Of a stretch of 64,000 bases of DNA, positions 8,317 through 43,530 are shown piece by piece. The stretch comes from Symsagittifera roscoffensis (Eukaryota), in NCBI RefSeq assembly GCF_963678635.1, contig NC_087064.1, forward strand, positions 32,617,028 through 32,681,027, read 5' to 3'. The notes under the pieces are model-generated. The model was not told the origin of the DNA. It ran no database searches and worked only from the letters and a program-made list of their open reading frames with translations. Position 1 is the first letter of the stretch. Every line of letters begins with the position of its first letter. The position numbers and the translations under genes are program-made.

Positions 8317-8429
8317 CTCGAAACCATCCAGACTTGCACTTACTGATGTTATAGGTCGAGCGTTCAGTGATTGTTCTACAAGACAGAAAGTTGTTTCAAG
8401 GACTTCGGGAGTGAGCTTTCTACTTCCTA

Positions 8430-19796: not shown

Positions 19797-19827
19797 TGCT
19801 TGACTAGGCTTTCTCAACATCCTGCAA

Positions 19828-20658
19828 ATGAATGTAAGAAGTCTCATAAATCTCGAACGACGAATGAAGTTTGCAAATGCTATAGCAACATCAAACTATG
19901 ACATAATATGTCTCTGCGAGACTTGGTTAAATGAAAACATTGCAGCATCTGAAATAATGCTAAATGAATACAGTATTTATAGATCAGAACGACAAACAGC
20001 CAAAGATCAAAATTTGCACGGTGGAGTACTAATGGCAGTGAAACAAACATTTTCATCTAAATTGTTGCCAAATAAGCAACCTGAATGTTGTTTAACTTGC
20101 CGCATCCAAATAAACGATAAACGAATTATTGTCTGCTGTTTTTACAATCCACCTTCGAGCAGCAAATATTGCTATTGTCTAGGCGATTTCGCACAAATTT
20201 TAAATGAAATCGAGAAATCAAATCAATCAACTGCAACACTTATTTGCGGAGATGTAAATTTTCCAAATGCAAACTGGATTGACTATAGTAGCACGGAAAA
20301 TGAAGAAAACTCAATAATTGAACTAATCGAGCAACATCAGTTCGAGCAGGCAATAAATTTTCCAACTTGTGGCAAAAACATCCTAGACATTACATTATTC
20401 AAAAATTGTCACATTCATGCGACTCCTGACAAAAAATTTTCAAAAATTTACAATTGCTCCGACCACAAAGCAATCAGCATTCTAATTGAATGTCCTCACC
20501 ATGAGGTAAAGGTCGCTATTGAAAACTTTCGAAGCTTCGGTAGCGTGGACTATAACGAAATCAAGAAATCAATACTAAGTGAGCCTTTCTCACCAGTATG
20601 TCACACAAACATCAATAGAATGTGCGAGGAATTTACGACTATTTGGAAAATTTGTTAA
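19828..20658 (+). pseudogene. LINE ORF2 N-terminal part: apurinic/apyrimidinic-type endonuclease
   Basis: MNVRSLINLERRMKF...YDIICLCETWLNENI...GGVLMAV...ICGDVNFPNANW...CSDHKAI, matching the EEP/APE endonuclease signature. Frame is broken at ~20622-20658 before the RT. Confidence 0.75.
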
Positions 20659-22643
20659 ACCAACATGTGGCTAGAAGAACGAGACGTCGCCAATCACTTC
20701 CGCCATTGGTTACGCCAAGTACCTCAAACATCATGAACAAACTGCGAACACAAACTAGAATATACAAATTGAAACCTACAAGCTACCGCAGAAATCTCAT
20801 TCTATCTCTACATAAAATGATGGAAGAAGCAGTAGAGGAAGATAGAGTAAATTATCAGGAAAATTTGATGTCCACTCGTAACACCCATTTAATTTTCAAA
20901 CACTTTAAGAGTCTGAAAAAATCAGAAACTCTCCCAAAGACTATGATCAAGGACGAAATAGCTGTTTCCAAAGCCAAAGAAAAAGTGAACTTTTTGAATG
21001 AATATTTTCACTCTGTATTTTCGCCCAAATCAAGCTTCAACCTCAGTGACATGAAATGCGAAAACACGATATTGAGTAACTTCAGTATCTCAAAAACATA
21101 TTTAAACCAAATTATAACAGAGCTGGACATAACAAAATCGCGGGGCCCAGATGGACTCCCACCAATTTTCTTCCAGCGAACGGCCAGAGAAATGACCACA
21201 GTTTTGCATTGGGTTTTTAAAAACATCAAGAGGTTAAGGAAAATACCAGATAAATGGAAAGTTGCGGCTTTGTCACCTATTTGCAAGAAAGGTGACAAAC
21301 GACTAATGAAAAACTACCGGCCGGTGTCACTCCTCAATATCATGAGTAAACTCCTGGAAAAATGCATGCATCCAGCGTTGTATGACCATTTCATCAAATT
21401 TCTCACAAGAAGTCGGCACGGTTTTGTTAAAAACCGTTCAAGTGTTACAAACATGTTATCTTTCTTGAAAGAAATCTACGAAGCAATTGACAAGAACGCT
21501 GAAAACCATGTGATCGCATTATCTACCGACTTCTCTAAGGCATTCGACAAAGTCCCGCATTACGAACTACTAAAGAAAATGAGCAACCTTGGAGTTGGAG
21601 GCTGTTTCCTTGAAATAATCGCCGACTATCTCAGCAACAGGAAACAATTTGTTCGTGCTGACAATTTCTCATCAGAAACTTTAGAAATTACAAGTGGCGC
21701 ACCACAAGGATCGTTGATTGGTCCATTATTCTTCTGTATCTTCATAAATGATCTTCCTGAAGTATTGAAATTTAGTGACCCATTTATCTTTGCAGACGAC
21801 CTAAAATTACTAGCAGTGAATGAAGACACAAAGGACATCCAGCAGGACCTAAAAAGCGTTGAAAACTGGGTAGATAAAAACAAGATGAGTCTGGCACTGG
21901 ACAAATGTTTTAAAGTCGAATTTATAGGAAATCAACACGAATTTATTCTTTGTGAAACAGCAGTGGAAAGCTCGAATGTGATAAAGGATCTAGGAATACA
22001 TGTGTCCAAACATTTAACACGGACAACCCATATTGACTCAAGAATGTCGAAAGCGAATAAAACGTTCTATTGCATCCGCAGAAACTTAGAATTCAAAGTC
22101 AAAATGCGCATAAAACTTGGTCTGTACAAATCGTTAATACTTCCTGTTCTAACGTATGGTATAATTATTTGCAATATCTCAAGAAGCGACTTAGGGAGAT
22201 TAGAAAGGTTCCAAAAGAAAGTCTTAAAATGGATCACGGGAAACGATTCTGACTATACAGAGCAGCTGAGATTGTTAAACATCCTGCCTCTGGCGTTGTT
22301 TCTCCAGCTGAACGAGTTACTGATGATGGCAAAATTCATGCATGAAGAAAGCGATCACATTAAGCTCCCGGCAAAAATTGAAAATCCAGGAAGAACGAAA
22401 GAAATTTTCAACCTAAACAAGACCAGAACTGAAAAAACTGGAGGAGAGTTTACATTCAGGACCTGCCGTCTAATAAACCGACTAAATCAGAAAATTGAAT
22501 TTCGAGAAATGCGAGGCTTAAAGCGAAGATTGATACAGATGATGTGGAAATTTTTCGACGATCAATTCTCAGAACAAAACAAGTGCACATGGGTCCTCTT
22601 CTGTGACTGCAACATGTGCCGAAATAACTGGACAAAATTTTGA
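20622..22643 (+). pseudogene. LINE ORF2 reverse transcriptase and C-terminal Cys-rich region
   Basis: ALSTDFSKAFDKVPH (RT box 2-3), GAPQGSLIGPLFFCIFINDL, FADDLKLL (YxDD box), C-terminal CTWVLFCDCNMC. Confidence 0.8.
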
Positions 22644-25700: not shown

Positions 25701-26392
25701 AAAACTTCTAAATTCTTCTTATCGTTCTCTCTTTGGCATCTTGTCATCCAGCTATTGCCACTGTTTCATCTCCTCCTCCTTTCACATCGACTCTGCACTC
25801 TAGGTTTCTGTGGCTTGCAACACATCGGTGGCCATTCTGACGCTGTTGGATGTAGTCCTCCAGCACCATTGTTTGCAGCAAGGTAAAGGGTCTACATCAG
25901 TTTCCCTATGTGTGCAGAAGCTGTTGTGAAGGCACAACGTCACATTTATCTCCAGATCTATCTTCCTTCAACATTTCTTTTTTTTCTCTTCCGTCACAAT
26001 CGATTGTTTTCAACGTTTTTTTCACTGGGGTAGTTAGTGTTTTCCGATGTGTTACGAAAGCTCGCTTGAAAGCTTCCGATCCTGTGTCTATCTGATACGA
26101 ACTGTACGGCCTGTTGTGCTACGACATATGCTTTTTGCCAAAATCGTACAACCAAAGAGTCATGTTGGCTCTGAATCATGACATCAGTCGTCTTCTGGAC
26201 CATTTTTTCTTTAATTCCATCAAAATTTTGCACATTGTCTTAAAAAAATCTAAATCTTTTAGACAATCAAGCTCTCCTAACTGTACCTCTAAAGAAATCA
26301 ACATGCTGTAGAATCCTAGTGCAGTCACTAGATTCACTTCAGTTCCTTCATGACAATCCGTTATTAGTTCTGTTTCTGTACTCTTTTCATCA

Positions 26393-27654
26393 CTATATTT
26401 CCAAACAATATCGCCAGTTGCTTGTGCTGCCTCGCAAGTGAGTTTGCGCAGTCAAGACCGCCACACAGCTAACAGGTTTGACCCAGTCATCTGGTCCCCA
26501 GTCAGGCAACTCTACGTTGTTGTCTCGGTTGCTCCTAGAAGCTGTAGTCATCAAGTTGTAGTTGATGTTGATATCGCGCAAAAAGCAATCTGCATTCAAT
26601 TCTCTCTGTACATTCTGCGTTTCTCTCTCTCTCTCTCTCTCTCTGTCTCTGTACATCCTTGAACCAGCGTTTGGACTCGGGCGGCACCATGATGGCTTCA
26701 TTAATTCCAACAATATCATCAAGCTTGTCCTCAGTAATTCATCTGAGATTCCCAATCCAAACTCCACGCTGTTGTGAGATTTCGGTATGGAAGGTTTAGT
26801 TATTTTTTCTTGCAATACAAGTACTAGCTTGACTTGCTGACTTGCCTTACCTCTTATCATTGATATTCATGACAACCTGAATCTCAATAACACAGCTTGT
26901 TGTTCATAATCGAAGTAATAATCACATATGTCCTCATCGATGAAAGGATAGTACGCCATTCCAACAGTTCCCGACACATAATGGTATGACTTCTTTCTGA
27001 TAGGTCCACAGTTTTCACCGAACTTCAGCAGTGTCCCCAACGATTCTTTCGTGAGCCTAAGGTACTTATTGGAGAACATTCAGATTTCAACGTTGTTCCC
27101 CAAGGGTTCTAGTTCCACAAGTTCTTTCATATTCTCTCTCAGTGGCTTACTATAGTGAATGTCCAACAGTGCTTGTAAAAGCAAGGTTTTTACCAGATCA
27201 CTGCATTCTCTCAACATTTTCGCACAGGTATTTAGCGCTGGAACCGACATCTGTTCCAACATGAACCGGACGAAACAGAGAGCGTTTTTCCGTTTCGCAC
27301 ACACTACTACCGCTCCTTCACAGATCATTAGGTCTCTCAAATGCGTCATCAAGAGCACCTTCTGTTCTTTCGACCGTTTTGTTTTCTTCAGATTCATACT
27401 CTTGCAGCGTCAGTCCCGTCATACACCAAGCAAGTTTGAGTTGTAGCTCAGCTGTTCTGACGTACGGTATCGCCACCAGGGCATGTATTATCGGAGTAGC
27501 TCGCATTTTGTCTTCGAAATGGCGTAGTAAAACTGCCATCTACGAAAACCTCACCAATTGATCCACCGTTTCTGTGTGCATCTCGGAAAAAGCTAATGTT
27601 CCGTTTGCCTTCTGTTTCATTGTCGTGCCTTTGATCATTTCTCCCAAGTAACAA
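26393..27654 (-). pseudogene. String of frame-broken minus-strand ORFs of unknown origin, possibly a decayed TE or host gene
   Basis: Consecutive ORFs 27654-27448, 27539-27318, 27397-27080, 27079-26867 and 26860-26393 on one strand in shifting frames. No motif I can assign. A (CT)n/(GA)n microsatellite lies at ~26620-26650. Confidence 0.2.
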
Positions 27655-27717
27655 TCCATGGCACTTTTGTTTTCTAGAGCAATTAAATGTCTTCTAGCTT
27701 AGTTCTGTGTTAAAATA

Positions 27718-27868
27718 ATGTGTTAAAATTCCTCCCATTTTCAAGGTCGTTGCTGAAAGCGAAAGGAAACGTAGAATTAATTAAAATGAACAAAGCGATA
27801 AAAAAATAATTGCGTTGCAATAACGCAGCTTTCGCAGCAGCAAATGAGCGATTGAAATAGCACATATG
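27718..27868. repeat. Direct repeat A (~150 bp), matching 29268-29388
   Basis: TGTGTTAAAATTCCTCCCATTTTCAAGGTCGT...AATTAATTAAAATGAACAAAGCGATAAAAAAATAATTGCGTTGCAATAACGCAGCTTTCGCAGCAGCAAATGAGCGA is shared. A carries a 23-bp insert relative to A'. Confidence 0.7.
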
Positions 27869-28287
27869 ATGGTCTGTGGAACTGCTGTTTGCACAAGAGC
27901 GTCTCTTGTCCATGTCATCCAAGGGCCTTTACCAGTTATTACCTTAGTTGCAGGTCCAATGTTAAATTTGCCATAATTGTTTTTGTAATAACGTGATCTC
28001 ATCGGAGGCTTCAGCAATAAAAAATACTTGGACTTCAATAGCAGCTCATCCGATGTAGGTACATTGGTTGAAAGAGGTGTATAGTGCGTCGCTAACATTG
28101 TCCTGAGCTCACCGTTATTCACACCATCAAGGAACTTTGAAGCTTCTGCCAAGTTCATCCTGCTGCTTGACTCGTCCGTTTGAGTACGCCTTCTAAGCAT
28201 TTCTAAGTCATCCCTGAACTTGTCTATGGTTTCATTTTCACGTTGCCTTCGTTTATCGAAGTGCATCTTCGCTTGCTGTTTTTGCAC
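27781..28287 (-). pseudogene. Gag-like ORF (168 aa) between the A/A' repeats
   Basis: MQKQQAKMHFDKRRQRENETIDKFRDDLEMLRRRTQ...NLAEASKFLDGVNNGELRTMLATHYTP: weak resemblance to retrotransposon gag N-terminal domains. C-terminus is encoded by repeat A. Upstream S/R-rich ORF at 29012-28545. Confidence 0.25.
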
Positions 28288-29267
28288 TCCCGAGCCAAAC
28301 GCGATTAAACTGTATCTCGAAGTTTTTCTCAGCAGTGTCTTGCTGGTATTGCTTTTTGGCCAACACGCAATTCAGGAATGTCCCTTCCAAGTTGCTGGTG
28401 AGCGCATTGCATTCTGGTCTTTCTTTCAAGTCTTATTCATTAAAATCCAACTTCATGACTTCTATCCAGGTATCTATACAACCAACAGAATCATCCTTAT
28501 AACATCTCGGTCTCTTGAACACCCGTTTAGATTTCTCGCTAGGCTCAAGGATCCTGGACAACCTTGTGAGAAAAGTCTCCAAGGAACTGTTCAGGAATTG
28601 CTGTTGCATCCCGTGAATATCTCGATTGATCGTCCATATCTGATGTTTGAGGCTCTAAAACTTCCCTCCTGTCCGAGTCGCAGGAATGAGCTCTTCCCTG
28701 GTTCAGGGGATTGCAGTTTGCGGACTCACCTCTTCCACTCGCAGGTGCTTCTCGCGTAGGTCGTTGGTTCGAGGTTGGCCTAATGCCAATAGAGCCTGCT
28801 CTGATATTCGTGGGAATCCTAGACCGGTGACTCCCAGTGGTGCTGCTGGATGACTTACCCCTTCCTATTGTGGATCCATAGGTCCTTCCTCTGTTTGGAT
28901 GCTCGTTTAAGCTCACTCTCGGCTCTCTACTAGCTTCTCTTGAGTGTGCTACTCTATTTCTAAATTCGCTCCTGTTTACCAGGAGGCCATCCAATCTGTC
29001 CATTCGAGACATACGCGATGATGGCCTGAGTGTGTCTTTCCATCATCGCGTATGTCTCGTAGGTCCTGTATAATACGTCTATTGCGATTTATTTCCTTCC
29101 GGATTCTCTATCTCTCAATATGAACTGCTTTTTCTAGTCCACTCATTTTTTTGACATCTGTTGATTCTGTTCACTCTTGCTATCCACAATCTTAGTCAAT
29201 ACCTCTTCATTGATGTCCCGTTGTCCCCCAATGGAGTCACTAGTGGTGGCTTCACCTTGTTTGTGCA

Positions 29268-29388
29268 ATGTGTTAAAATTTCTCCCATTTTCAAGGTCGT
29301 CGAATTAATTAAAATGAACAAAGCGATAAAAAAATAATTGCGTTGCAATAACGCAGCTTTCGCAGCAGCAAATGAGCGAATGAAATGA
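29268..29388. repeat. Direct repeat A' (~120 bp), partner of 27718-27868. Together they bound ~1.4 kb holding gag-like ORFs.
   Basis: See repeat A. Possibly short LTRs of a non-autonomous LTR element, or internal repeats of a larger element. Confidence 0.6.
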
Positions 29389-29650
29389 GGACATTATACG
29401 GCTCATAAAAGATCCACAGATTCAAATCAAATGAACAACGACGTTCACTGTGAATGAAATGAATATATTATACAGCATTAAAAACACAACAGAATAAGTA
29501 GACATGAACAAAATGCACTGAATCACAACTAATAGTCATCATTGATGAATTTCAACAGTTTTTCAAAAGAAATTTTCGAGCTTTTCGTTACAAAGTCAGC
29601 CAGTTTAAGTGTTCTAGACTTCCAAGTAACTTCCGACACTTATGAATTTT

Positions 29651-32600
29651 CTACCATTGAACGGAGAGCCGATTTTCGATGCGTAGACGTTTGTCTTGCG
29701 GAATTTTGGTAGAGTAGACAGATTCCACCACTGAACGATTATCAGTAATTGCTTTCACAGGAACCTTCACAGATTTCAGTTTCGATATCATTTTCTGACA
29801 AAATAAAGCAGGTTCGACAGCAATAACACAAAAAAGTGTTTCGCCCTTTGCCGTGCTTCTGACAACGCGACGTAGACAATTCGATTTCCAATTAATGAGG
29901 GTTTTTGATCGAAGATTTCCATAAAGGAATACAAGATATCCTGCTTGTGTGTCTCGAGAAGGTAAATTTCCGAGAGATGCGTCGCTATAAGCTGTAGTTA
30001 ACCAAATTTTCGGATCTCCAGGGTTTTCAAAACACATGGCACAAAACTTGGCTGTTGCGTCTAGCTTTCTAACGATCTCGTTAGCAATTACAAAATGTTG
30101 TTCATTATTCCATAAATCTGAGCTGGCCAAAAACATATTGACTTCGAAACAAACGTCTGGACGTGTCTGAATCGCGACCCACTGCAATTTTCCCATCAAA
30201 GCCTTCAGTTCAGTGTGCTGCTTTCTGGACAGTATTTGCCCTACTTTCGGAGATTCAATCGTTTTGATCTGATTGACAATCACTCTGGTCCAATATGAGG
30301 CGACCATTTTCTTCCAAAACATCGAAACAGAGATATCGGAACTGGGCAATTTCACTGGAACGCACATTGAAAACTTTAGAAAGATAATTCACGATTTCTC
30401 ATTAGAAAATGTCGTCACCACACCACCAAAAATCGTCTACATGAAAGGATAGCATTCCATGAAGGGTTTCATTTCTTGTAAGGTGAAATAGCAAGGATCA
30501 AAAGGGAAACTGTCCAGGATTTCTTGCTTAACGCGCTTGTACCAGTGCCGAGCTGCATCAACCAAACCATAAACGCAGCGCATTAATTTCCAAAGTGAAC
30601 CTTCAACTTGGGCTTCAGGTGGAGGTTTTATAAAAACATCCCAAGTCAAAGGTAAGCCTTGTAAGAAAGCAATTTTAATGTCAAGAGAATTTGTCTTCCA
30701 TCCTTTCTAGACACAAATTAGCAGCAAAATACGAAATGCTTCTCTTGAACAAGTTGGGAGTCTTTGATAACCTTGTAGTAATCTGGATCTTCATACCCAC
30801 TGATGACCAAACGTGCCTTTTTCCTACCATTTTCGTCTGTCAAGACCCTTCTACAAGTGAGATACAACTGGACTTCATTCTCAGCAACACAGTAAACATC
30901 TTTATCTATCCAATTTTGGAATTCTTTGCACTTTTCAGCGGCACAAGGATCATTGATTCCTGACAATACCTCTTTGACAGTGGCAGTATCGACCGACAAT
31001 GCAACTTCTGGACCACAAACCAGCAAATTCTCTAGCCGTGAAATGTCTACAAAGTCTGTACGCCCCGCCAACAATTCAGGTGCGTCATACTTGACGTTCC
31101 ACCAATTTTTGTGCTCGCCAGAGGATTTTCGATTGCTTGTTTTCTAGATGTACAGATATTGGCTCAATGACCGCACTTCTACTTCTTTCTGATACTGGCA
31201 CCACAGTTTCGACCAAGACATTGTTTTCAACGCATTTTCTCAGTCGAGAGCAATGCACTTTCAGCATACTTCCTCCATGACGCAGAAAAATAACGGCATT
31301 ATCAACCCCAATTATGTTAGCAGGTCTCCGGCACCGATTCTCGCGCTCGGTTTTGTAATAGACAGCTTGATCCTGAAAAAGGTCCGTTGTCTTTGCGTGT
31401 TTTAGCGCACAGCGCTCTTTCACTCGATTACAGAAGTCAGCTTCTGGAAACGCTTTTCTAGCAGCATTGAACCCCGAAACTAGAGCAGAAACGAACTCGC
31501 TGGTGGTTTTTGCTTCAAGAGCCGGAGGTTTATTCGTCAAAACTTACGGCATGCGTGGATTTGAGCCGTAATCAACTGGAATGATGAAAAACCATCTTTT
31601 TTAAGCAGAGAATGTTTCGTGAAGCCTGCTACTCTCAAGAGACTATCTTTTCCTAATTTAGTTGAAGGATCTAGCTTCAACTTCAAAAACAGTTATGTGA
31701 TAACACTATTGTGCCGCTCGACCAGGGAGAGTTGGCAGCCGACGTTTTCACTGTAAAATCATAATTCTCAGCAAGCGACTTGAAACTTCCATTGTCGAAC
31801 TCCTTCCCATTGTTTGTTAAAATTACGTTCGGAAACCCGTAAACGAAACCCCAGTTATCGACGAGCTTTGCAATTATCGTATCAGCTCATTTATTGACAA
31901 TAAACGTCGCAACAGAGAAACGAGTGAAAATATCGATTATGTGTAAATGCCACACAGATCGGCCCAACTCGGTCATTTCATGATTTTACGTCTTCGCCGC
32001 TACTTTTCAGTAACTTCCTTAATTTGTCAACTGAGCAATGATCAAACTGTCGGTGCAGCTTCTGGATATTCGGCTTGTTGAGTTTGCAGGCAAAAAAACT
32101 AAAACCATCTTCGCTGAAATCACTGACATTCATCAGTAAATGCCCTGTTGATGCTGAAACAAGCGGTATGACAGAATTTTCCATGAAAATCGCTTTTCTT
32201 TTGCCGAAATCAATGACCATTCTGGATTTCTCCATTGAAACAATGCTCAACAACTTAAGTAACTCTCCAGGTATTCTTGAAACATTGAGAAAACAACAGC
32301 AATTACTAAACATCACCGGAATATAAAGGGCAGTTGTAATTTTAATTTTCTCACATCCTCCAAAAATAACACTGGAACTCACTGGTTTTCTGATTACTTG
32401 TTTGAACAGAGGCTTCGGCAGTAGTTTAAATTAATCGGTCAGCCATTTTTTTCCAGTTACAGTCGTAGAACAACCTGAATCCAAGATAGCTTTTCCATGG
32501 CATTCATCAGTGAGTTGACCAGACAACATAACAAAAGACAGAAAGGCCTTCTCCCTCAATGTCACGCGGAACATCGTCTTGTGACACCAAAGCTGACGAT

Positions 32601-33551
32601 TCTTTTTCTGGGCAATCTTTCACCCAATGAAAGTGACTTACTTCCACAGTGTCCACATGTTTTAATACGACCATCTTGGTTGGGAGGATTCGTTCCTGCT
32701 GGTTTCTGTCCACCGTTGTTATGAGAACCACGGACGTACGGTCGCTTACTTCGGACGTACGGAAGTTTCCTCCTCGTCCAGCACCTTTTCTATCGGTGTC
32801 GAAACTCCCCGAATTAGTGTACAAAGCGGTATCTACTTCACGATGGGATACGAAAACAGGTTCATCTTTAACCACAATTGGTGTACTCCCGGAGGCCTGG
32901 TTGCAAGCAATCACAGTTGAAAAATTTTTCTTGATGCTACTTTTCAAATCCGCCAAAGTGAGTTTCGGAGTGGCAGAGAGCACTAATTTTCTGTCTCGCT
33001 CATCTAGCCCAGTGCAGACTAATAGCTTGCAAGCTAGTACTTCTTCTGGTAACTCAATTTTTTTTGCTTTTTAAACCTAGCGTTCGCTTGCTCAAACTCA
33101 GCAATGAAGTCAACGATGCTCGCATTTGTTCGACAGAGTTTTTCAAACTTTTTATAGTCTGCGAAGAGTTCATCAACCGCTTCTTTACCGAACGCTCCTT
33201 TCAAAGTGTCTAAAAGTTTGGTTAGGCCTTCGTTAAGGTTCAATTTTGATAACGGAATAGACATCGCTGTTTCTGTCTTCGCACCCGTCAATGAAAGCGC
33301 TATCACAAGGGCTCGTTTTTCTTCTAGAATATCAGTGACCGCGGCCCACATTAAAATTTCTCTCTTCCAAGATTCAAATGACATGGTTGATAGCCATACC
33401 GGCGGGGTTTGAACATTGATACAACCGATGGTTGCACTGTTGAGGCGGATCCATCATCTGCTCCTGCATCCATGTGAACTGGATAAAAAACACTGTTTGG
33501 TTCAGACTGTATTAGTAAACCCCACCGGACAACATTACAGCGCTGAAACAT
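29651..33551 (-). mobile_element. Degenerate Ty1/copia-type LTR retrotransposon internal region (gag - protease/integrase - RT - RNase H), multiple frameshifts, no LTRs recognised
   Basis: Minus-strand ORF pieces in copia order. Gag is 33551-32507 (UBN2-like N-terminus; knuckle remnant HFHWVKDCPEK). Integrase zinc finger LHRQFDHCSVDKLRKLL is at 32382-31978, IN C-terminus at 31540-31085. RT is 31074-30437 (KARLVISGYED; YGLVDAARHWY). RNase H is 30367-29651 (TRPDVCF...YSDASLGN...GYLVFLYGNLRSKTLINWKS). Confidence 0.7.
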
Positions 33552-33904
33552 GTTTATATGTAAAAAAAAATTGTTAACAGAAACTAAACAAAAAAGCTGG
33601 CTGATCCATAAAAGCAGGAGCTAACTGATCATAAGCAACTACTTACCATAGTTGGTTTTTCAAGGGACCACTCTATCATAGTATTACCACTATGGATATC
33701 GGAAGTGGCCTTGAGTCTAGTCTTTCGTTCAATTCCTTTCATCACGCCACGAACCAAAAGATTTAAATTAATTGAAAAAAAAACTTATTTGTAGAGTTTT
33801 AAGATTATGATCGGAACACTTTGTGCTATTTGCACAGCAACCGGCTATCCTTGTTTTCTTATGAATTCAAATTAGGCTTTTGTGATTTTCATTCTTGTTT
33901 TTAG

Positions 33905-34115
33905 TTGGAAAATTCTTACAGATCATGATCAATGCAATTGTTCTACTGCGACAAAGAAAAGGAGAATCATTTGTTCAAAGCTTGACCTGAACGATAGCAG
34001 AAATTCTGATGGGCTAGAACATTCTTCTTGTCAGCATCTTATCAAACCTTTCAATCATCCAGCCCCATGCCCTGAAGACTGTCCCCCTTCGTGGATTGTC
34101 TTCAATTTTACTGAG
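33905..34115 (+). CDS. Exon of a TSR/Ig-domain gene: C-terminal half of a thrombospondin type-1 repeat (5' boundary uncertain; gene probably starts upstream)
   Basis: Strong acceptor CATTCTTGTTTTTAG at 33890-33904 (the apparent N-terminal 'MIFILVF' is just the translated polypyrimidine tract). Encodes ...CNCSTATKKRRIICSKLDLNDSRNSDGLEHSSCQHLIKPFNHPAPCPEDCPPSWIVFNFTE. Donor GAG|GTAATC at 34116. Confidence 0.5.
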
Positions 34116-34187
34116 GTAATCTAAATTAACTAAACCAAAATTGCTATGCTGGTTTTTGCGAGCCTTTTATTTAGATACAATGTTTAG

Positions 34188-34364
34188 TGTAGCGTAAAAT
34201 GCGGCGGAGGAATCAAAACTCGGGAAGTATTCTGCGGGAACCCAAATCACGAAAGCTATCGAGCGGATGTCGAAAAATGTTTACTGCAACCAGAACCCAG
34301 TAGAACCGTGAAATGTGCCGACACTGACTGCGAGCCTCAGTATTCTACTTCCAAGTGGTCAACT
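34188..34364 (+). CDS. Exon: complete TSP1 repeat core
   Basis: Acceptor TGTTTAG|TGT. Encodes CSVKCGGGIKTREVFCGNPNHESYRADVEKCLLQPEPSRTVKCADTDCEPQYSTSKWST, the canonical CSxTCGGGxxTRxxxC ... C...KP...R...C layout. Phase 0 join with the previous exon (...FNFTE|CSVKCGGG). Donor GTTAGT at 34365. Confidence 0.6.
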
Positions 34365-34990
34365 GTTAGTTCTAATTACCTTAGTTAGTCCTAAAAATTG
34401 ATTGTAATAGAGTTGGTTATAAAATGTTGGGGTCAGAAAATGTTTGCACTTGTTTACACAAGCGAACGATAGGATATTTAACGAATTTTTTTCTAAGCTC
34501 TTTTGGTGGAACTTTCGCTGCATACCTTAAGCAATTTAATCAAATCTGTTTTTATTGATGGCTAGTGGTGGTTGCAGTTTGTCAAGTGACCATGGGGTAG
34601 ATGCGAGGACGTGAAACTCGTTGTTAAGTTCGGTGTTTAGAAGTCAGTAGGTAGTCATAGTTTTATTTTTTGCTACTTGCCTTTAACTTTAATTTTATAA
34701 GGTGTGTTTTTACTTCTTCTTTATTCATTTTTTATATAATTTATTGGAGTAGTTTTTTCTCGTTTTTTCGATTGCGTTAGCGTAGTGCAACTTTGCCTCT
34801 GTGTAAAAAGTTGTGTTTAAATTTATGTGAATTCGAACAGTATGTGTTCTCGCTTTTGTTTTGTAAAGAAACAATTGGTTTTCATATTCAGACCATTTAA
34901 TGTGCATTGACACTGTATATTTGTTACATTTTTACACTAGCGAACTTGTGATCGTAGTGTATTAGTATGGACATACTTTTTTCCAACCTT

Positions 34991-35250
34991 ACTCCCAAAT
35001 AAAAGTACTCATTTGGTGGCATTTTTGCTATGATCACGATCTTTAGCATTGTAAATTTCATAGCATCTGCTCTCTGCTTTATTTGTGGCTAGTGTTTGTC
35101 GATCATTAAGTGTCCGTGGCAGAGTGGGCAATACAAGAGGCTCTTAATCTCGAGGTTGCTAGTTCGAATCCGTCGTTAAAAATGTTTAAAAATTTTGTTG
35201 TTTTGCTAGGTTTTGCGAAAAGCAGCTTCGCCTCGGGTATAAATAAAAGA
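34991..35250 (+). mobile_element. SINE-like element copy: tRNA-Lys-like head plus conserved GCGAAG hairpin tail
   Basis: GTCCGTGGCAGAGTGGGCAATACAAGAGGCTCTTAATCTCGAGGTTGCTAGTTCGAATCCGTCG has a CUCUUAA anticodon-loop-like segment and a GTTCGAATCC T-arm box. Tail is GCGAAAAGCAGCTTCGCCTCGGGT. Homologous over ~260 bp to 59191-59470. Confidence 0.6.
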
Positions 35251-36007
35251 TCTAATGATAATGGAAACACGCGTTAACCGCTGATGCAAATTGATACACT
35301 TCCGCGAGCAATTGTTATAATCGATGGCTCGATTTTATTTTCTCGAAAACAACTTTGCAGCATTAATCGTTGGAAGTTTAATTTTTCTAACCACATGTAA
35401 ATAGCCTTTCCGGCGTTTGTTGAACAGTTCATTGACATAGAAAAATTGGTAATATTCCAACGCATTTTAGTCAAAGATAGGAGTTAGGGTTTTTTCAGTT
35501 TTTGGTTTAAGTTTAGCTGTCTTATTTGCCCTGCTTTGATTGTTTTGAGCCCCTTGATCTTTCTTGCATATGTATTTCAGTTATCTTGCTCATTTTAAGT
35601 TTTAGCGGTGAAGATGAGTATTTTCCAAGGTCTTGCTTTCTATTTGTATGTCTTTTCACGAGCTTAGCGTAGTGTGGTAGCTTCTAAAAAAAATTTGAAT
35701 AAAAGTGCTTCTTTTCAGCGGCAATGTTGAATCAGTAAGAATCATTGGCACTTTCGTGATATGTGCTTTGACATCTGATTAGTAATAAGTTAACGCAGTT
35801 GATACGTTCTTAATTCGTCAATTGGAACAAAAAAAGCTATTTATTTCTTGCACCATTTTTACCCTTGCGATAAGCAAGAGTATTGCAATCGGGTACTAGA
35901 CTTTTTGGGCCTGTAAATAACTATGTTCACTGAAGAGTCAACATTATAAATTGTAAATTTAGGTTCAGTTCATATTGAATTCTATTTTTTTCGCGTATCC
36001 GTCACAT

Positions 36008-36062
36008 TTGGTCTGGAGGTAACGAATATGCCTGCGGCGGCCAAGGGTTCGAATCTCACAGG
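36008..36062 (+). repeat. tRNA-derived fragment, probably a SINE-head remnant and not a functional tRNA
   Basis: GGTCTGGAGGTAACGAATATGCCTGCGGCGGCCAAGGGTTCGAATCTCACAGGATC: D-loop-like and T-arm-like boxes, but no complete cloverleaf can be drawn. Confidence 0.35.
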
Positions 36063-37129
36063 ATCTGTTTTTTTTTTTCAAACGAGCAATATTCCGTCTC
36101 AAAAAAAATTGTCTGCTTATTATGTGTCTATATGTTTTGTCTCCTTAGTTGCCTTATTGTATTTTTTTTGTTTTACACAATTAATTTCTTTTTGCTTTAA
36201 ATGTTTTGATACATTTCTGCTATTTGTACTTCGTGTCTTCGTATATTTTCATTTTTTGTCTTTTCTTTCGCTTAGAAACTTTATTCTGCCCAAATGATTT
36301 CGGCTGAATCTTTATCGGCTTAATGACCTAATTTTCAGTCGTTTCAAAGGAAAAGTGTTATTGTTTTTTGCTCATTGGTTTGCATAAATTGCTCTAAATT
36401 TTATTGAAATTTTAGTTAGCTTTTTCTTGACGATATTTTGTTCGGCCTCATATTTTTCGGATAGGTTCTGTATTATATCGGTTTATGGCTCTATATGACG
36501 TGTTTCAACGAGCGAATCAACTTGTGCGCATGTGTGTGTTGAGGGCGAGGAGGAACTAATAATTGTTTATTAGTCTAAGTTTTTGGAATTTTTTATTGGC
36601 ATAATAGTTTTTGGTCTATATTATTTTGGCTTAGTGGTCTCCTGTTGTCTGATTTGACGAGCAATTAAAGTTTTGTGTGTGTGTTTTTAGGGTGAAGGGG
36701 ACTTGTTTTTTTTTCTTGGTTAAGTCTTGGCATGCAAAACTAGCGTTATTCATTCTGATAGATCTAGTTTGTTTTGATTTTTTTTTCGATTCTTTTCCCC
36801 GACTTTATTTATTACACGCAGAGTTAGTGCGGTTGCCTTTAGTTTATTGCATGCAAATGTTGAGGTTTCTGCATTTTAAAGCTCTTGAATCTTTGCCGCT
36901 TTCTCGCTTGTGTTTGCAAATTTACTTTTTCTAGTTCATTTTTCTGCATAAAATTTAGAAAAAACGATCGGTTTTGTTATTTTTGACTCAAATAACGTGC
37001 AAATTTTCTTTGTTTTTCTTTGACACCGTTTTGATGTGCGTCCGATTTCCGTTTTTTTCTTAAGAATTATGAAGGACTTCAAAAAGTTTTTGTTGAAAGT
37101 CATTTTGGTGACACTTAGCTCCATGCACT

Positions 37130-38560
37130 ACTTGAAATTTTCACTAACTGCAATTTGCTGCTCTTTTTGAAATTTTGCTGCACTTCTTGAAATTTTCACT
37201 AACTGTGCAATTTGCTGCTCTTTTTGAAATTTTGCTGCACTATTTGAAAATTTCACTAACTGTGCAATTTACTGCTCTTTTTGAAATTTTACTGCACTAC
37301 TTGAAATTTTCACTAACTGTGCACTTTGTTGCTCTTTCACTAACTTTGCAATTTGCTGCTTTTTAAAAAATTTTGCTGCACTACTTGAAATTTTCACTAA
37401 CTGTGCAATTTGCTGCTCTTTTTGAAATTTTACTGCACTACTTGAAATTTTCACTTACTGTGCACTTTGCTGCTCTTTCACTAACTGCGCAATTTGGTGC
37501 TCTTTTTGAAATTTTGCTGCACTACTTGAAATTTTCACTAACTGTGCAATTTGCTGCTCTTTTTGAAATTTTGCTGAACTACTTGAAATTTTCATTAACT
37601 GTGAACTTCGCTGCTCTTTCACTAACTGTGCAATTTGCTGCTTTTTTGAAATTTTGCTGCACTACTTGAAGTTTTCACTAACTGTACAATTTGCTGCTCT
37701 TTTTGAAATTTTGCTGCACTACTTGAAATTTTCACTAACTGTGCATTTTGTTGCTCTTTCACTAACTGTGCAATTTGCTGCTCTATTTGAAATTTTCACT
37801 AGCTGTGCAATTTGCTGCTCTTTTTGAAGTTTTGCTGCACTACTTGAAATTTTCATTAACTGTGAACTTCGCTGCTCTTTCAGTAACTGTGCAATTTGCT
37901 GCTTTTTTTGAAATTTTGCTGCACTACTTGAAGTTTTCACTAACTGTACAATTTGCTGCTCTTTTTGAAATTTTGCTGCACTACTTGAAATTTTCACAAT
38001 CTGTGCATTTTGTTGCTCTTTCACTAACTGTGCAATTTGCTGCTCTATTTGAAATTTTCACTAGCTGTGCAATTTGCTGCTCTTTTTGAAATTTTGCTGA
38101 ACTACTTGAAATTTTCATTAACTGTGAACTTCGCTGCTCTTTCACTAACTGTGCAATTTGCAGCTTTTTTTGAAATTTTGCTGCACTACTTGAAGTTTTC
38201 ACTAACTGTACATTTTGCTGCACGTTTTGAAATTTTGCTGCACTACTTGAAATTTTCACTAACTGTGCATTTTGTTGCTCTTTCACTAACTGTGCAATTT
38301 GCTGCACTATTTGAAATTTTCACTAGCTGTGCAATTTGCTGCTCTTTTTGAAGTTTTGCTGCACTACTTGAAATTTTCACGAACTATGCACTTTGTTGCT
38401 CTTTCACTAACTGTGCAATTTGCTGCTCTATTTGAAATTTTGCTGCACTACTTGAAATTTTCACTTACTGTGCAATTTGCTGCACTACTTGAAATTTTCA
38501 CTAACTGTGCACTTTGCTGCTCTTTCACTAACTGTGCAATTTGCTGCAACGATTTAAGTT
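37130..38560. repeat. Satellite: ~57-bp unit in higher-order arrangement, ~1.4 kb, inside an intron of the TSR/Ig gene
   Basis: TGCTGCACTACTTGAAATTTTCACTAACTGTGCAATTTGCTGCTCTTTTTGAAATTT repeated about 25 times with variant subunits (TGCACTTTGTTGCTCTTTCACTAACTGTG). Periodic pseudo-ORFs appear on both strands. Confidence 0.85.
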
Positions 38561-38620
38561 AACCAAGTGATTATTAGAATATTAGTCTTTGTCCTAAATC
38601 GTTTTGTTTTGGTGGTGCAG

Positions 38621-38792
38621 GCCTGTCATACTACGAACGTCGGTAAATCATGTGGGCGTGGAGTCAATACCAGGGACTTAGGATGTCAACAGAGACTGGC
38701 CGATGGTACCACTGTACAATCTCAACACTGTGACTTGAAAGATAAACCAAGTAGCTTCCGAGACTGCTACAAACCGTGTCCGGGAGATCAGT
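38621..38792 (+). CDS. Exon: another TSP1 repeat
   Basis: Acceptor GGTGGTGCAG|GCC. Encodes ACHTTNVGKSCGRGVNTRDLGCQQRLADGTTVQSQHCDLKDKPSSFRDCYKPCPGDQ. Donor T|GTAATT gives phase 1. Confidence 0.55.
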
Positions 38793-38858
38793 GTAATTTT
38801 TTTTCAGATTTAATTGCTGCTTTGTTTACTAAGAAGTTAATAGTAAGGTTATTTTAAG

Positions 38859-39170
38859 TGCTGAACTTGACAGTTTTCAATCTCTCTCGGACGTTCTTCG
38901 TCAAAAAGGGACAACCAGTGAATTTGTCATGTGCCTTGGACTGCCGATTTCCAGGCTCAACTTTTTCGTGGAAAATAAATGGCGAACTGGACAAGACGAG
39001 ATTATCGGCGAAGAAAGATTATTATATTGACAGCTTTGAACCCGAGAATCAAGCTGGCCTTTATACGTGCTCTATAAACATTCCAGAAATCTGTTACTCC
39101 AGGCATAATAAAGCAAATACTAGTCCAGAATGCAGATGCCAAAAACAGCTCAATTTCACGCTTATCTTCC
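38859..39170 (+). CDS. Exon: immunoglobulin-like (I-set/V-like) domain
   Basis: 66-nt intron with TTTTAAG acceptor, and phase 1 matches the previous donor. Encodes LLNLTVFNLSRTFFVKKGQPVNLSCAL...STFSWKINGEL...YYIDSFEPENQAGLYTCSINIPEI, with the Ig hallmarks C...W...Y.C. Donor C|GTAAGT at 39171 (phase 1). Confidence 0.6.
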
Positions 39171-39343
39171 GTAAGTTTTATTTGCTCGTTTTAAACTTTG
39201 CGTGCATTTTTGCGCCTTTAAAAATAATGCTGGAGTAAATAAAACATTAACACTTCTGTAACATGTCTTGATTGGAAAAGTTTTGAAGACAGAAAAGAGA
39301 ATACTTTGAAGTTGATCAAGATTTTTATCTTGTTTGTGTTCAG

Positions 39344-39495
39344 TTGAAGATGAAGCGAGGCAAATTTTCCAGAAGGCCCCTCAGCTCAGCACAAGTCCGG
39401 AAACTATTGAGACCAAATCAGAGGACTTAAATGGAGAATGCTACCGGGGCAATTGTTCCATAGAGTGGATAACCTCAGCTTGGCCCTCGCTTGAG
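39344..39495 (+). CDS. Exon: linker plus start of the final TSR (WxxSxW)
   Basis: Acceptor TGTTTGTGTTCAG at 39343, phase 1 consistent. Encodes LEDEARQIFQKAPQLSTSPETIETKSEDLNGECYRGNCSIEWITSAWPSLE. Donor GAG|GTAAAT. Confidence 0.55.
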
Positions 39496-40103
39496 GTAAA
39501 TTTCCTCTCATTTAGAAGTTTGGAAGCTACGCTGTATTTGTTCCATCAAGTAACTGTTTGCAAGATCAATTTAATGTTGAAGCTGAGAGGTTTTGATAAG
39601 AAGTTTCGAGAAAAAAATTAAATCGAAATCGTCTCGAACTACGATGTTCAACTTGCCTGTTTGGATCAATCTGATCTCAAACGTTAACTCTTTCTATTGA
39701 GCTGTTTTTTTTACACAATAAACGCTGTGAATATAAAATAAGTATTTTTTTTACAAACTACCTTGCATGAGTTAAAGCTTAATTTAGCTTGTGTTTTATC
39801 CGCTGTGTTTAAGTCATGTATGTACTCTAGTTGCTTGATGGAACTGGTGGTTCAGCCAGGAAGACGTATGCTTCAAAATTCGGAAGCCTGAGATTTGAAA
39901 AGCAGAGAGGGAAACTGCTTATTTACTTTTTTTGTTTTTTCTTTCTTGCAGTTTTGAAGCTCCTGTTTTCCATGCTTTTTTGCTTGCGGTCGCGAAGCGC
40001 AGCTTTGCCTGTTTAAAGGATATGGAATTCAGTGCATTTTTGATGCTTTGTCTTTCATTTGTTTAAGCTGCTTCTGTGAGACAAAAAGCGCTTATTTTTT
40101 CAG

Positions 40104-40298
40104 TGCTATCAACGTGAGGATAATGAAGATGGAGAGGAAACAAGCAAAAGCCAGACATCAAATTTGTGCACAAAGAGAGAACAGCGCCTTGTATGGTGTG
40201 GTGTGGATAGTCCAGAAAGCAGCTCAGTTGTCGACCCCTCTAACTGCAATCCAGAGCTGAAGCCAGAAGAAATGCGAGATTGTCTCATCGAATGTTAA
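40104..40298 (+). CDS. Terminal exon: C-terminal half of a TSR, then stop
   Basis: Acceptor CTTATTTTTTCAG|TGC. Encodes CYQREDNEDGEETSKSQTSNLCTKREQRLVWCGVDSPESSSVVDPSNCNPELKPEEMRDCLIEC*. AATAAA-like signal ~220 nt downstream (GTTAATAAACT ~40515-40523). Confidence 0.55.
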   Translation, partial: CYQREDNEDGEETSKSQTSNLCTKREQRLVWCGVDSPESSSVVDPSNCNPELKPEEMRDCLIEC

Positions 40299-40894
40299 CC
40301 ATAGTCGAGTTGTCATGCTTTCGCTAACACTTTTGTGCAACCATGTCTATCTCTATAATTGAAAATATTTTTATATGCAACTGTTTTGTTTCACGAATCA
40401 CAATTGGTCAAGACTGTTTAGCAGCCGTATCATCGAAAAGGGAAAAGTGGCTACGAACTTTGCCTCTCAGTTGAAAGATTGGTGGTTTGAAGTCCAACAC
40501 TATACATTCTGAAGAGTTAATAAACTAAGTGAGTTTTCACTAATTTAGGTCTAGTAGTTTTGATAGTTTTGTTTTTAGGTTATCGGTTGGACTTTTCTAG
40601 TTCGTTTACTTCAAATTCATTTGTTGAATCCAGGTCAATTCAAGCCCTCTAATAAAAAACTGTGATTGGCTCAAAAAAACGTGAACGAATTTAGGTTTCT
40701 GAAGTGATTTTTTCTAGAATTTGCAGCGGAATAATAAAAATACTTATTGATCCGGATCTACTTAACAATCGCCCTCCTTTTGGTATCTACGTAAGAATTT
40801 TGGTATCTACGTAAGAATTTCGACCCCTGTTAATAAAAGCAGTAAATTAGCGCTAGAGGTTTGTATTGAGAATAATAATTTTTTGGAATTTAAA

Positions 40895-42075
40895 GGAGGG
40901 AAACTGCTTATTTACTTATTGTTTTTTTTCTTGCAGTTGTAACAGAACTTTTTGAAAATTTTATATAAAAAAGCCGAAAAAACAAGAATTTTTTACAACA
41001 TTGTTTTCTTCTTAACAATGGGGGGGGGGGGAGCAATTGTTAAGTAGATTTATTGAGCCCGTTTTCTCAGATTGATTAAATTCATTTTTCCATTGAAAAT
41101 GCGTTTTTGAAATTTGGCATTTTCCGGTATTCTTCGGTTCCTCTAACTTTCCCATCTGTCTGTTTGCGAAGTTCGCGTGCATTCCCATTTTTCATTTTGG
41201 TTGTGCACGCAAGCGAAGCGTAGAAAAAAATCGCGTTTGGTAATTTCGATCAAAATCAAAAAAGGTAGAAATTGACTTTTTTTGTAGTTTTTTTATTTCG
41301 TCCCAATATTTGACGGTTATTTGTCAATTCAATTTATTCAATTCATTGTTTTATCCAATTCAATTTTGAAGAACGAAACTATATTTAACGGTTTTTTTAG
41401 TTTCTCTACACGCTAAAAGTATCAGTTAGAAAATGAAAAATTTTAAAGTGATTTTTTGTTTGACTTTTTTGAATGCTCTTTTCATTTTTTTGAATGCTTG
41501 GTTTCGTTTTTTGTTCCGAAAGGACTGGCAGTTAGCTAAAAGTAATGAAAAGTTTTGTTTGGCAATTTTGACTTTACTGTTTTGTCTACGAAGGTATTTT
41601 CTTATATTCTATCAAACATCTGGCGTAGAGGTATCACAAAGAGGCACAATCTACTGGCTCGAATCCGGCCGGGGTCTGTGTTTTTTGTAAACTTCATCTG
41701 TTGCTTTTTCGGACTATGGTTCGTTTGTTTATTTTTCTCGGCTCAGTTCCCGCAGAAAAGATTTTTTTTTGAAAATTCGGCTTCTTTCTAGCATTCCCAA
41801 AGCTTCTTGTGAAGTTTCTAATCGAACAGGTAGTTTTGTTCCGGACTTTTTTTGGCTTTTTTGCAATTTTAATATTTTATTTTGGATTTTTGATTTTTCT
41901 TGTCATTTGATTTTAATCTTAGTCATTCATTTTTGTTTTGCTAGTGGTGAGAATTTCAGCTTCGCCTCTGTGTTTAGATTTATATAGGGTCAATGAACGA
42001 AGTGAAGACACTACTTAAGTAGTGTTGTTTTTTCGGCTTTTTTATATTAAATTTTAAAAAGTTCTGTTACAAGAA
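40895..42075. mobile_element. ~1.2-kb segment bounded by ~65-bp terminal inverted repeats (candidate non-autonomous DNA element)
   Basis: 40915-40978 (CTTGCAGTTGTAACAGAACTTTTTGAAAATTTTATATAAAAAAGCCGAAAAAAC) is the reverse complement of 42012-42072. The interior holds SINE-tail motifs (41165-41230, 41950-41990). Confidence 0.35.
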
Positions 42076-42784: not shown

Positions 42785-43530
42785 CAGTGCTGATTTAAAT
42801 TAACCGGACAAAACGCGTTAAACTTGAAATTTAAAACGAGTTTTTCTCAAATTGGGTTCAGTTTAGGTGAAAACTTATGAAGACAAGAGTTGCTTGAAAT
42901 TTTTGCAGAATTAATATGGTGTAATTTGTTTTGCAAAATTCGGGCCCAAAATTTTACCCCAAAAATGGGTCATTTTGGCTTTTCTTAGTTAATCAAAAAT
43001 TACGCCAAAAATACCCAGTCGATCACAGACATAGTTATATCAAAGAGAGCGCCTTACGTTGCCCAACAAACTTTCAGAAGGGTATATTCTCAAAAAAATG
43101 CAAACCGTTTAAAAATTGTTTTTAAAATAAAAAGTTGATGTTTTATATAGTAAAAACGACCTTTTTTGTCTATCAACCAAAAAAATTTATTAACTTATTC
43201 AATGTTTTGGTGAATATACCCTTCTTAAAGTTTGTTGGGCTACGCAAGGCGGCACTCTCTTTGATTTAATTATGTCTGTGATCGACTGGGTATTTTTGGC
43301 GTAATTTTTGATTAACTAAGAAAAGCCAAAATGACCCATTTTTGGGGTAAAATTTTGGGCCCGAATTTTGCAAAACAAATTACGCCATATTAATTCTGCA
43401 AAAATTTCAAGCAACTCTTGTCTTCATAAGTTTTCACCTAAACTGAACCCAATTTGAGAAAAACGCGTTTTAAGTTTCAAGTTAAACGCATTTTATCTGG
43501 TTAATGTCCGGTTAATTTAAATCAGCACTG
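42785..43530. mobile_element. Foldback element, copy 1: 746-bp near-perfect palindrome
   Basis: CAGTGCTGATTTAAATTAACCGGACAAAAC...GTTTTGTCCGGTTAATTTAAATCAGCACTG. The arms 42785-43140 and 43175-43530 are reverse complements with very few mismatches. Flanked by TA on both sides. Confidence 0.8.

Follow-up and report, generated by a model that had tools for sequence, protein, structure and literature searches.

Six coding exons of an annotated madd-4-like gene, encoding a probably secreted TSR/Ig protein, in a repeat-rich locus of the acoel Symsagittifera roscoffensis

In the 64-kb window (the whole stretch of Symsagittifera roscoffensis DNA that was analysed), the final six coding exons of a forward-strand gene span positions 33905–40298 (Table 1). 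The gene was known beforehand from its RefSeq annotation as 'protein madd-4-like', a name assigned automatically by NCBI. All six exons are bordered by GT/AG sites with cumulative phases of 0, 0, 1, 1 and 0; the acceptors of exons 1–6 read ...tttttag|T, ...tgtttag|, ...ggtgcag|, ...attttaag|, ...tgttcag| and ...ttttcag|, and the donors of exons 1–5 read gtaatc, gttagt, gtaatt, gtaagt and gtaaat. The T at 33905 is the last base of a codon opened in an upstream exon, and the frame closes with a TAA stop at 40296–40298. The conceptual spliced product of 405 aa is 100% identical to S. roscoffensis RefSeq proteins XP_063714439.1 and XP_063714440.1 (444 aa in isoform X1, 411 aa in isoform X2). The six-exon model and its phases, first proposed in a sequence-only reading of the window, were arrived at independently by NCBI's automated annotation, and the intron positions are also conserved in another acoel genus, Convolutriloba. 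That reading further held that the 66-nt intron keeps the frame only if one particular pair of splice sites is used. Retention of the intron does lead to a stop, but ten GT/AG pairs would preserve the frame; the pair chosen is nonetheless that of RefSeq and is conserved in the Convolutriloba orthologue.

Table 1. Coordinates of gene and repeat features in the window.
Feature	Position	Strand	Description
Isoform X2 first exon, coding part	32843–32859	+	ATG GGA TAC GAA AAC AG, then gttcat; MGYEN + two bases of Ser
Exon 1	33905–34115	+	Degenerate TSR-like module (motif W...C.C...R..C...C..KP...C...C) + first (W) strand of TSR2; enters phase 2, leaves phase 0
Intron	34116–34187	+	72 nt, gtaatc...tttag; retention gives an in-frame stop
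Exon 2	34188–34364	+	177 nt, phase 0/0; TSR2 body (CSVKCGGGIKTR...) + TSR3 first strand
Large intron	34365–38620	+	4256 nt
SINE-like insertion	34975–35585	+	611 bp; varies between haplotypes; carries tRNA-like segment
Second tRNA-like fragment	36009–36079	+	GGTTCGAATCTCACAGG, then T run; read directly from sequence
Satellite array	37124–38548	+	1.43 kb (TRF); 57-bp unit = 27 + 30 bp sub-units
Exon 3	38621–38792	+	172 nt, phase 0 to 1; TSR3 body
Intron	38793–38858	+	66 nt, gtaatt...ttttaag
Exon 4	38859–39170	+	312 nt, phase 1/1; Ig-like domain (C...W...Y.C) + four extra conserved cysteines
Intron	39171–39343	+	173 nt, gtaagt...ttcag
Exon 5	39344–39495	+	152 nt, phase 1 to 0; acidic Ser/Thr-rich linker, CYRGNC, first (W...W) strand of last TSR-like module
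Intron	39496–40103	+	608 nt
Exon 6, last coding	40104–40298	+	Degenerate C-terminal TSR body, TAA included
Candidate polyadenylation signal	40519–40524	+	AATAAA, first after the stop (221 nt downstream); sequence pattern only

An upstream 5' exon had been predicted for this gene, and both RefSeq isoforms have one. The peptide MGYEN of isoform X2 was located in the window only at its first exon, whose terminal AG joins the T at 33905 to form AGT, encoding Ser as in XP_063714440.1. This exon lacks a signal peptide and sits antisense inside broken retroelement-like ORFs. In isoform X1, a 39-residue putative signal-peptide segment (MEMFPVLILCLVFYSSELMTLHHLESINSTEENAEAIYN) is joined straight to the exon at 33905; the signal-peptide exon expected upstream is present in RefSeq but lies outside the window, >41.7 kb upstream. 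It was found neither in the window, by exact 4–6-mer peptide searches and relaxed tblastn, nor in the 7.8 kb before it, by a walk on the identical ENA contig; matches to 'AEAIY' at 60520 and 62009 fell inside a repeat and were dismissed as chance. Spliced-leader trans-splicing was likewise rejected as the source of the 5' end. Because the spliced leader published for S. roscoffensis lacks an ATG and no in-frame Met occurs in the exon at 33905, a cis-spliced upstream exon is needed. X1 has one hydrophobic stretch (residues 3–14) and no second membrane-like segment, with 32 cysteines beyond that stretch and 10 N-x-S/T sequons. The signal-like segment is missing from isoform X2 and from the annotated N-terminus of the Convolutriloba protein.

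The encoded modules start with a degenerate TSR, followed by two clear ADAMTS-type TSRs, a single Ig domain, a linker and another degenerate TSR, and the order TSR-TSR-TSR-Ig-TSR proposed earlier was upheld by Pfam, a custom TSR profile and a PDB profile search. Pfam TSP1_ADAMTS (PF19030) scored 66 bits on the whole product and, at a cut-off of 23.8 bits, 52.2 bits on TSR2 alone (E=7e-14) and 30.8 bits on TSR3 alone. The Ig exon scanned alone reached 28.2–28.5 bits against Pfam Ig_2 (cut-off 27), with matches in both orthologues, and a profile built from the two Ig segments retrieved only Ig-superfamily chains from PDB, contactin-1 being the best (E=3e-6). The module at 33905–34115, initially described as half a TSR, is TSR-related but nearly whole and degenerate: it has no Pfam match, and aligns to positions 11–54 of the 59-position custom profile at 11–12 bits, a score equalled by 0 of 500 shuffles. 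The divergent C-terminal TSR is supported by the same profile (15–16.5 bits, reached by none of 500 shuffles), but falls under the Pfam cut-off, with TSP1_ADAMTS at 14.4 bits (E=0.045) as the sole, weak Pfam match of the C-terminal 95 residues. ADAM_spacer1 and the ADAMTS Cys-rich domain were absent at E<=1 on the whole product and E<=10 on segments, as were Pfam matches to PLAC in the product or its C-terminal 95 residues, to Kunitz/BPTI in the whole product or segments, and to any protease domain in the product. An AlphaFold2 model of the full protein from a two-sequence alignment was unusable (mean pLDDT 31.5).

The sole full-length relative found was Convolutriloba macropyga XP_075239378.1 (also 'protein madd-4-like'), a true orthologue with 45% identity over its full length, colinear over the six exons and conserving every cysteine, including those of the C-terminal TSR. 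Its gene shares the five intron positions and phases, and the phase-2 junction before the first of these exons. The two loci have no nucleotide similarity. The counterparts of the 177-nt and 172-nt exons are equal in length, and the introns of 72, 4256 and 66 nt correspond to introns of 65 nt (same position and phase), 4397 nt and 70 nt (phase 1), respectively. Only the Convolutriloba gene has an extra 59-nt intron in the Ig exon, and its last intron spans 11 kb. The start of the 462-aa protein is encoded by two short exons lying no more than 1.3 kb upstream, which contain neither a domain nor a signal peptide. Outside acoels, no colinear TSR-Ig relative was present among the 150 best matches of an exhaustive phmmer search, in which the Ig region was reached only by alignments to TSR-TSR-CUB tails, from Ptychodera, or to generic, CD22-like Ig proteins; the TSR region alone found relatives, generic multi-TSR proteins such as ADAMTS9.

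Repeats occur within the large intron. TRF detected the 57-bp higher-order satellite described earlier and put its higher-order periods at 141 bp (92% matches) and at 262 bp (94%, 3.8 copies); all 31 matches in the window to its 27-nt core fall inside 37194–38523. No satellite was found in the large intron of Convolutriloba. Of the three haplotype contigs, ctg22271l lacks the 611-bp insertion whereas the other two have it and, together with its tRNA-like segment, this difference suggests a SINE-like mobile element, although we saw no clear target-site duplication. The tRNA-like segment (about 35104–35175) begins not at the 5' end of the element but ~130–140 bp into it, with A-box-like TGGCAGAGTGG and B-box-like AGTTCGAATCC read from the sequence at 35116–35175. 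Positions 34977–35172 share 70% identity (E=2e-26) with window positions 59176–59371, a copy that has a weak full-length tRNA match (17.1 bits, E=0.54; Rfam cut-off 29). The 'SINE' of the sequence-only reading holds as a probable tRNA-related mobile element within the intron, but the intron copy is not recognised as a tRNA by ARAGORN or Rfam. Neither program matched the second tRNA-like fragment, and across the large intron they returned no credible RNA family, three matches with E>2 being noise. No conserved role attaches to the satellite, the tRNA-like insertion or the retroelements, which are passengers in the intron or in flanking DNA.

Every exon length, splice site and reading frame is intact in the three haplotype contigs, with 4 differences per contig over 1218 coding positions; in the L004 haplotype, mismatches in the surrounding DNA amount to about 1.5%, above the coding rate. 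The repeats are more variable: the satellite measures ~0.95 kb in L004 and 0.88 + 2.14 kb in L001, and positions 39635–40049, in the 608-nt intron, are missing from one haplotype. In contig ctg22271l (L001), 3.35 kb are duplicated in tandem, with the junction at L001 13540–13600 and the intronic satellite at the border; the duplication includes another intact TSR2 exon that, if spliced in, would add exactly one complete TSR. These differences in satellite length, mobile element and exon-2 duplication give an example of how repeats in introns may bring about change in domain arrays, but may partly be assembly artefacts.

The product was initially likened to ADAMTS-like proteins and papilin. The Ig domain set among TSRs and the subtype of the TSRs (PF19030) bear this out, but the Cys-rich, spacer, PLAC and Kunitz domains of those families are absent, and judging by sequence, the resemblance to ADAMTSL/punctin is limited to domain types. 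Like the short isoform of C. elegans punctin/MADD-4 and vertebrate ADAMTSL1 and ADAMTSL3, the acoel protein is non-catalytic and putatively secreted, with tandem PF19030 TSRs and a single Ig-like C2-type domain between TSRs. MADD-4 isoforms have 7–10 TSRs and further modules (PMC9083331); the acoel protein, at 444 aa, has about four TSR-like modules, of which two are degenerate, and X1 has just 39 residues before the first module, with none of the PLAC, ADAMTS Cys-rich and spacer regions of punctin/ADAMTSL. The canonical CSxTCG motif is CSVKCG in TSR2 of the S. roscoffensis protein. Papilin, a secreted matrix protein, similarly combines ADAMTS-type TSRs with an Ig domain, but is far larger and has Kunitz/BPTI domains, an ADAMTS spacer cassette and PLAC.

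The gene structure was read directly from the locus, and expression of the gene is predicted by the RefSeq model. We are highly confident that this is a real, intact gene, the product of which is a probably secreted TSR/Ig binding or adaptor protein. The six exons might instead terminate a far larger ADAMTSL/papilin-type gene, with Cys-rich, spacer and more TSR exons upstream of the window, as could be supposed from the distant and unseen first coding exon of X1, and from MADD-4, in which long and short isoforms arise from alternative promoters (PMC9083331). The direct joining of the 39-residue segment to the 33905 exon in X1 and the compact, domain-free upstream exons of the 462-aa Convolutriloba orthologue speak against this. 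Moreover, positions 1–33900 hold mainly retroelements. No other TSR-coding sequence exists anywhere in the 64-kb window, so a giant multi-TSR gene does not have its tail here; we consider a larger gene very unlikely. A decaying or unexpressed pseudogene, its RefSeq model a homology-driven artefact and its exon consistency only apparent, appears slightly more improbable still. Isoform X2 does start within a retroelement remnant without a signal peptide, and the introns do carry satellite and mobile-element insertions, but frames and splice sites are intact in 3/3 haplotypes, coding polymorphism in L004 is below that of flanking DNA, and 32/32 cysteines are conserved, along with the intron positions, in a genus at 45% identity.

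The name given by NCBI would fit a true functional counterpart of punctin/MADD-4S, that is, a neuron-secreted protein organising postsynaptic receptor domains through its Ig domain. ADAMTS-type TSRs with an embedded Ig domain are indeed the arrangement of MADD-4S (PMC9083331), but MADD-4S has 7 TSRs (PMC9083331) to the four TSR-like modules seen here, PLAC is lacking, and the relatives found outside acoels, through the TSR region only, are of the generic multi-TSR kind; functional equivalence is thus unlikely, though less so than either a larger gene or a pseudogene. With similarly little expectation, we raise a 'minimal punctin' restricted to acoels. This would be a secreted organiser of 444 aa with the order TSR-TSR-TSR-Ig-TSR, lacking colinear relatives beyond Convolutidae; its exons would be modular, with phase 0/0 borders and, in each, one TSR body and the opening strand of the following TSR, and would perhaps be expanding in ctg22271l.

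Under our preferred reading of an intact gene for a probably secreted binding or adaptor protein, the N-terminal hydrophobic signal-like segment of X1 would direct export via the secretory pathway, where the protein would be folded with 16 disulfides and N-glycosylated. Outside the cell, by analogy with TSR/Ig proteins of the ADAMTSL/punctin kind, X1 may act in the matrix or at the cell surface as a binding or adaptor protein without catalytic activity.

The main value of the locus is as a check of method, in that a reading of raw sequence by eye gave the right six-exon model, with its phases, the order of its domains and the repeats in its intron, in an acoel genome rich in repeats. In biological terms, it adds one more uncharacterised, probably extracellular TSR/Ig protein, with no new mechanism shown. 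Acoels serve reasoning on early bilaterian nervous systems and matrix, and a short punctin-like acoel protein might be worth following in expression studies.

The last six coding exons of the gene, read over 33000-41500 and spliced, give a 405-aa translation that is 100% identical to two Symsagittifera roscoffensis RefSeq isoforms differing at their 5' end, XP_063714439.1 (X1, 444 aa) and XP_063714440.1 (X2, 411 aa), both named 'protein madd-4-like', and the NCBI pipeline has therefore independently arrived at the same exon-intron structure. ENA contig ERZ25878734 ctg22781l is likewise 100% identical to window positions 28858-49238. All five introns have GT...AG ends and pyrimidine-rich acceptors, their cumulative phases (0, 0, 1, 1, 0) are those proposed in the sequence-only reading, and the frame ends on TAA at 40296-40298. 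Each TSR is divided between exons, with the first (W) strand ending one exon and the body lying in the next. It had also been proposed that the 66-nt intron keeps the frame only with one donor-acceptor pair; its retention does produce a stop codon, but ten GT/AG combinations preserve the frame, making 'only if' too strong.

Features of the window around and within the madd-4-like gene
Feature	Position	Strand	Details
Coding exons (n = 6)	33905-34115, 34188-34364, 38621-38792, 38859-39170, 39344-39495, 40104-40298	+	
X2 start	32843-32859	antisense in retroelement debris	MGYEN, then AG/gttcat; peptide search
'SINE' segment	34975-35585		611 bp; lacking in one haplotype contig
Satellite array	37124-38548		1.43 kb; TRF; unit 57 bp, higher-order 141 bp (92% matches) and 262 bp (94%)
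Pao/BEL-type LTR retrotransposon	7912-14311	-	near-intact; gag-like DUF1759, Peptidase_A17, integrase
LINE	19122-22643	+	endonuclease and reverse transcriptase
Broken retroelement-like ORFs, upstream of gene	26000-33400	-	decayed copia-type look by eye

Among 1.84 billion representative proteins searched exhaustively with phmmer, a single full-length relative emerged, XP_075239378.1 of Convolutriloba macropyga, with 45% identity, all six exons colinear and all cysteines invariant. When this protein was mapped onto its genomic locus (L006), intron positions and phases matched at five of five introns, and the phase-2 junction preceding the exon equivalent to that at 33905 was shared as well. Exons of 177 and 172 nt are equal in length in the two species, the 312-nt exon corresponds to 110 + 214 nt in C. 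macropyga, where an extra 59-nt intron splits it, and the large intron occupies the same place with a comparable length (4397 nt versus 4256 nt in S. roscoffensis). Exon lengths, reading frames and splice sites are all preserved in two more S. roscoffensis haplotype contigs (L001/L003 and L004), each with only 4/1218 coding differences, against ~1.5% mismatches in DNA around the gene in the L004 haplotype. Orthologue colinearity, intron positions and intact haplotypes together argue for a genuine gene under constraint. The orthologue's 11-kb last intron also holds an extra copy of the coding sequence of the first TSR-like exon (L006 16654-16767; aa 51-85, 63% protein identity), which could be a pseudo-exon or a duplication relic.

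In Pfam scans, the whole product scored 66 bits on TSP1_ADAMTS, and by segment TSR2 (52.2 bits) and TSR3 (30.8 bits) exceeded the 23.8-bit cut-off, whereas the C-terminal module fell below it (14.4 bits) and the N-terminal module had no Pfam match. The Ig exon scored 28.2-28.5 bits on Ig_2 (cut-off 27), a family matched by both orthologues. With a custom profile of 2152 ADAMTS-type TSRs drawn from phmmer matches, the C-terminal module reached 15-16.5 bits and the N-terminal one 11-12 bits in the two species, values attained by 0/500 composition-matched shuffles, with the Ig domain as control at 2 bits. The N-terminal module, called a 'TSR half' from sequence alone, covers profile positions 11-54 of 59 and is therefore a nearly whole, degenerate TSR. 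A two-sequence Ig profile matched only Ig-superfamily chains in the PDB (contactin-1 at 3e-6, CEA, sidekick and CD22), and four extra cysteines in the Ig domain are conserved with C. macropyga. Structure prediction gave a mean pLDDT of 31.5, too low for fold-based inference.

As anticipated, the 5' end lies upstream of 33905, because the T at this position completes a codon whose first two bases lie in another exon. The start codon cannot come from trans-splicing alone, since the published S. roscoffensis spliced leader lacks an ATG and the first exon in the window lacks an in-frame Met. The X2 start exon encodes no signal peptide; its antisense position in a decayed retroelement-like run suggests a transcript begun from a transposon remnant. 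Between it and 33905, 62 bp (33173-33234) are missing from haplotype contig ctg22271l. The 39-residue N-terminus of X1 (MEMFPVLILCLVFYSS...) is absent from the window and the 7.8 kb preceding it, placing its exon >41.7 kb upstream of 33905. X1 carries a single hydrophobic stretch (residues 3-14), with no other membrane-like segment, and beyond it 32 cysteines; it has 10 N-x-S/T sequons. No signal peptide is present in the annotated N-terminus of the Convolutriloba protein, and that gene model may therefore be incomplete at its 5' end.

The 57-bp higher-order satellite described in the large intron was recovered by TRF, and all 31 matches to its 27-nt core fall within the array. It varies in length among haplotypes, was not found in the Convolutriloba large intron, and is a lineage-specific passenger. 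The first 196 bp of the 611-bp segment share 70% identity with a second window copy (59176-59371), whose tRNA-like part scores weakly as a full-length tRNA (17.1 bits, E = 0.54); ARAGORN and Rfam recognised no tRNA in the intron copy, nor was a clear target-site duplication visible. This haplotype-variable segment is mobile and tRNA-related, and plausibly the SINE it had been called.

Haplotype contig ctg22271l (ENA ERZ25071366) carries a tandem duplication of ~3.35 kb (L001 10229-17400, equivalent to window 34109-38520) that takes in the final 6 nt of the first exon in the window, intron 1, exon 2, the 5' part of the large intron and some of the satellite. Its copies are 99.47% identical, with an 18-bp filler at the junction after the satellite; it could represent genuine structural variation or a spurious haplotype duplication. 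In the second copy of exon 2 (L001 13658-13834) the splice sites are preserved and there is one A-to-V change; splicing of both copies into the transcript would lengthen the protein by exactly one TSR. The same contig lacks 415 bp of intron 5 (39635-40049), a haplotype indel with 'gtct' microhomology at the junction. A 47-bp motif (gggaaactgcttatttac...cttgcag) occurs in intron 5 (39907-39953) and, 89% identical, in the 3' flank (40896-40938), and probably derives from a small dispersed repeat.

The surroundings fit the published genome description, in which repeats, chiefly LTR retrotransposons, account for 61%, heterozygosity is high and haplotypes are under-collapsed (PMC9911081). By narrower limits than those tabulated, the Pao-type element in the window spans 8433-14311 and the LINE 19828-22640. 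Immediately before the window comes another Pao element (L005 659-5808), and the broken ORFs preceding the gene had no Pfam match. A second tandem array, unrelated to the intronic satellite (16273-17102; 48-bp unit, 17.4 copies, 84% matches), yields long spurious ORFs on both strands. A ~700-bp repeat occurs at 42799-43505 and 56652-57370, and again in haplotype loci; the latter window copy matches in both orientations and therefore has internal inverted symmetry.

By published definition, both MADD-4 isoforms contain an Ig C2 domain and PLAC; MADD-4L combines these with 10 TSRs and with Cys-rich and spacer modules, MADD-4S with 7 TSRs (PMC9083331). The S. roscoffensis product has in common with them only the TSR subtype and an embedded Ig domain, whereas PLAC, present in both MADD-4 forms, and the Cys-rich and spacer modules of MADD-4L are missing. 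Neither these three nor Kunitz was detected by Pfam in the whole product or its segments, so the ADAMTS-like/papilin-like architecture initially proposed holds for the TSR subtype and Ig domain but not for the remaining modules. A larger gene, of which these exons would be a part, is disfavoured by the lack of other TSR-coding sequence elsewhere in the window. Non-acoel relatives in the phmmer search align over the TSR region only and are large proteins with many TSRs, Nematostella ADAMTS9 among them; among the few alignments extending to the Ig region, none revealed a colinear TSR-Ig protein outside acoels. A specific punctin-like synaptic role seems improbable to us.

The gene call itself was correct, with gene structure and domain content directly observed; the gene, already annotated and uncharacterised, represents ordinary biology and adds little that is new. 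Judging by what is established for TSR and Ig domains, its product would be exported, disulfide-folded and N-glycosylated, and may act outside the cell in binding or as an adaptor, without catalysis.
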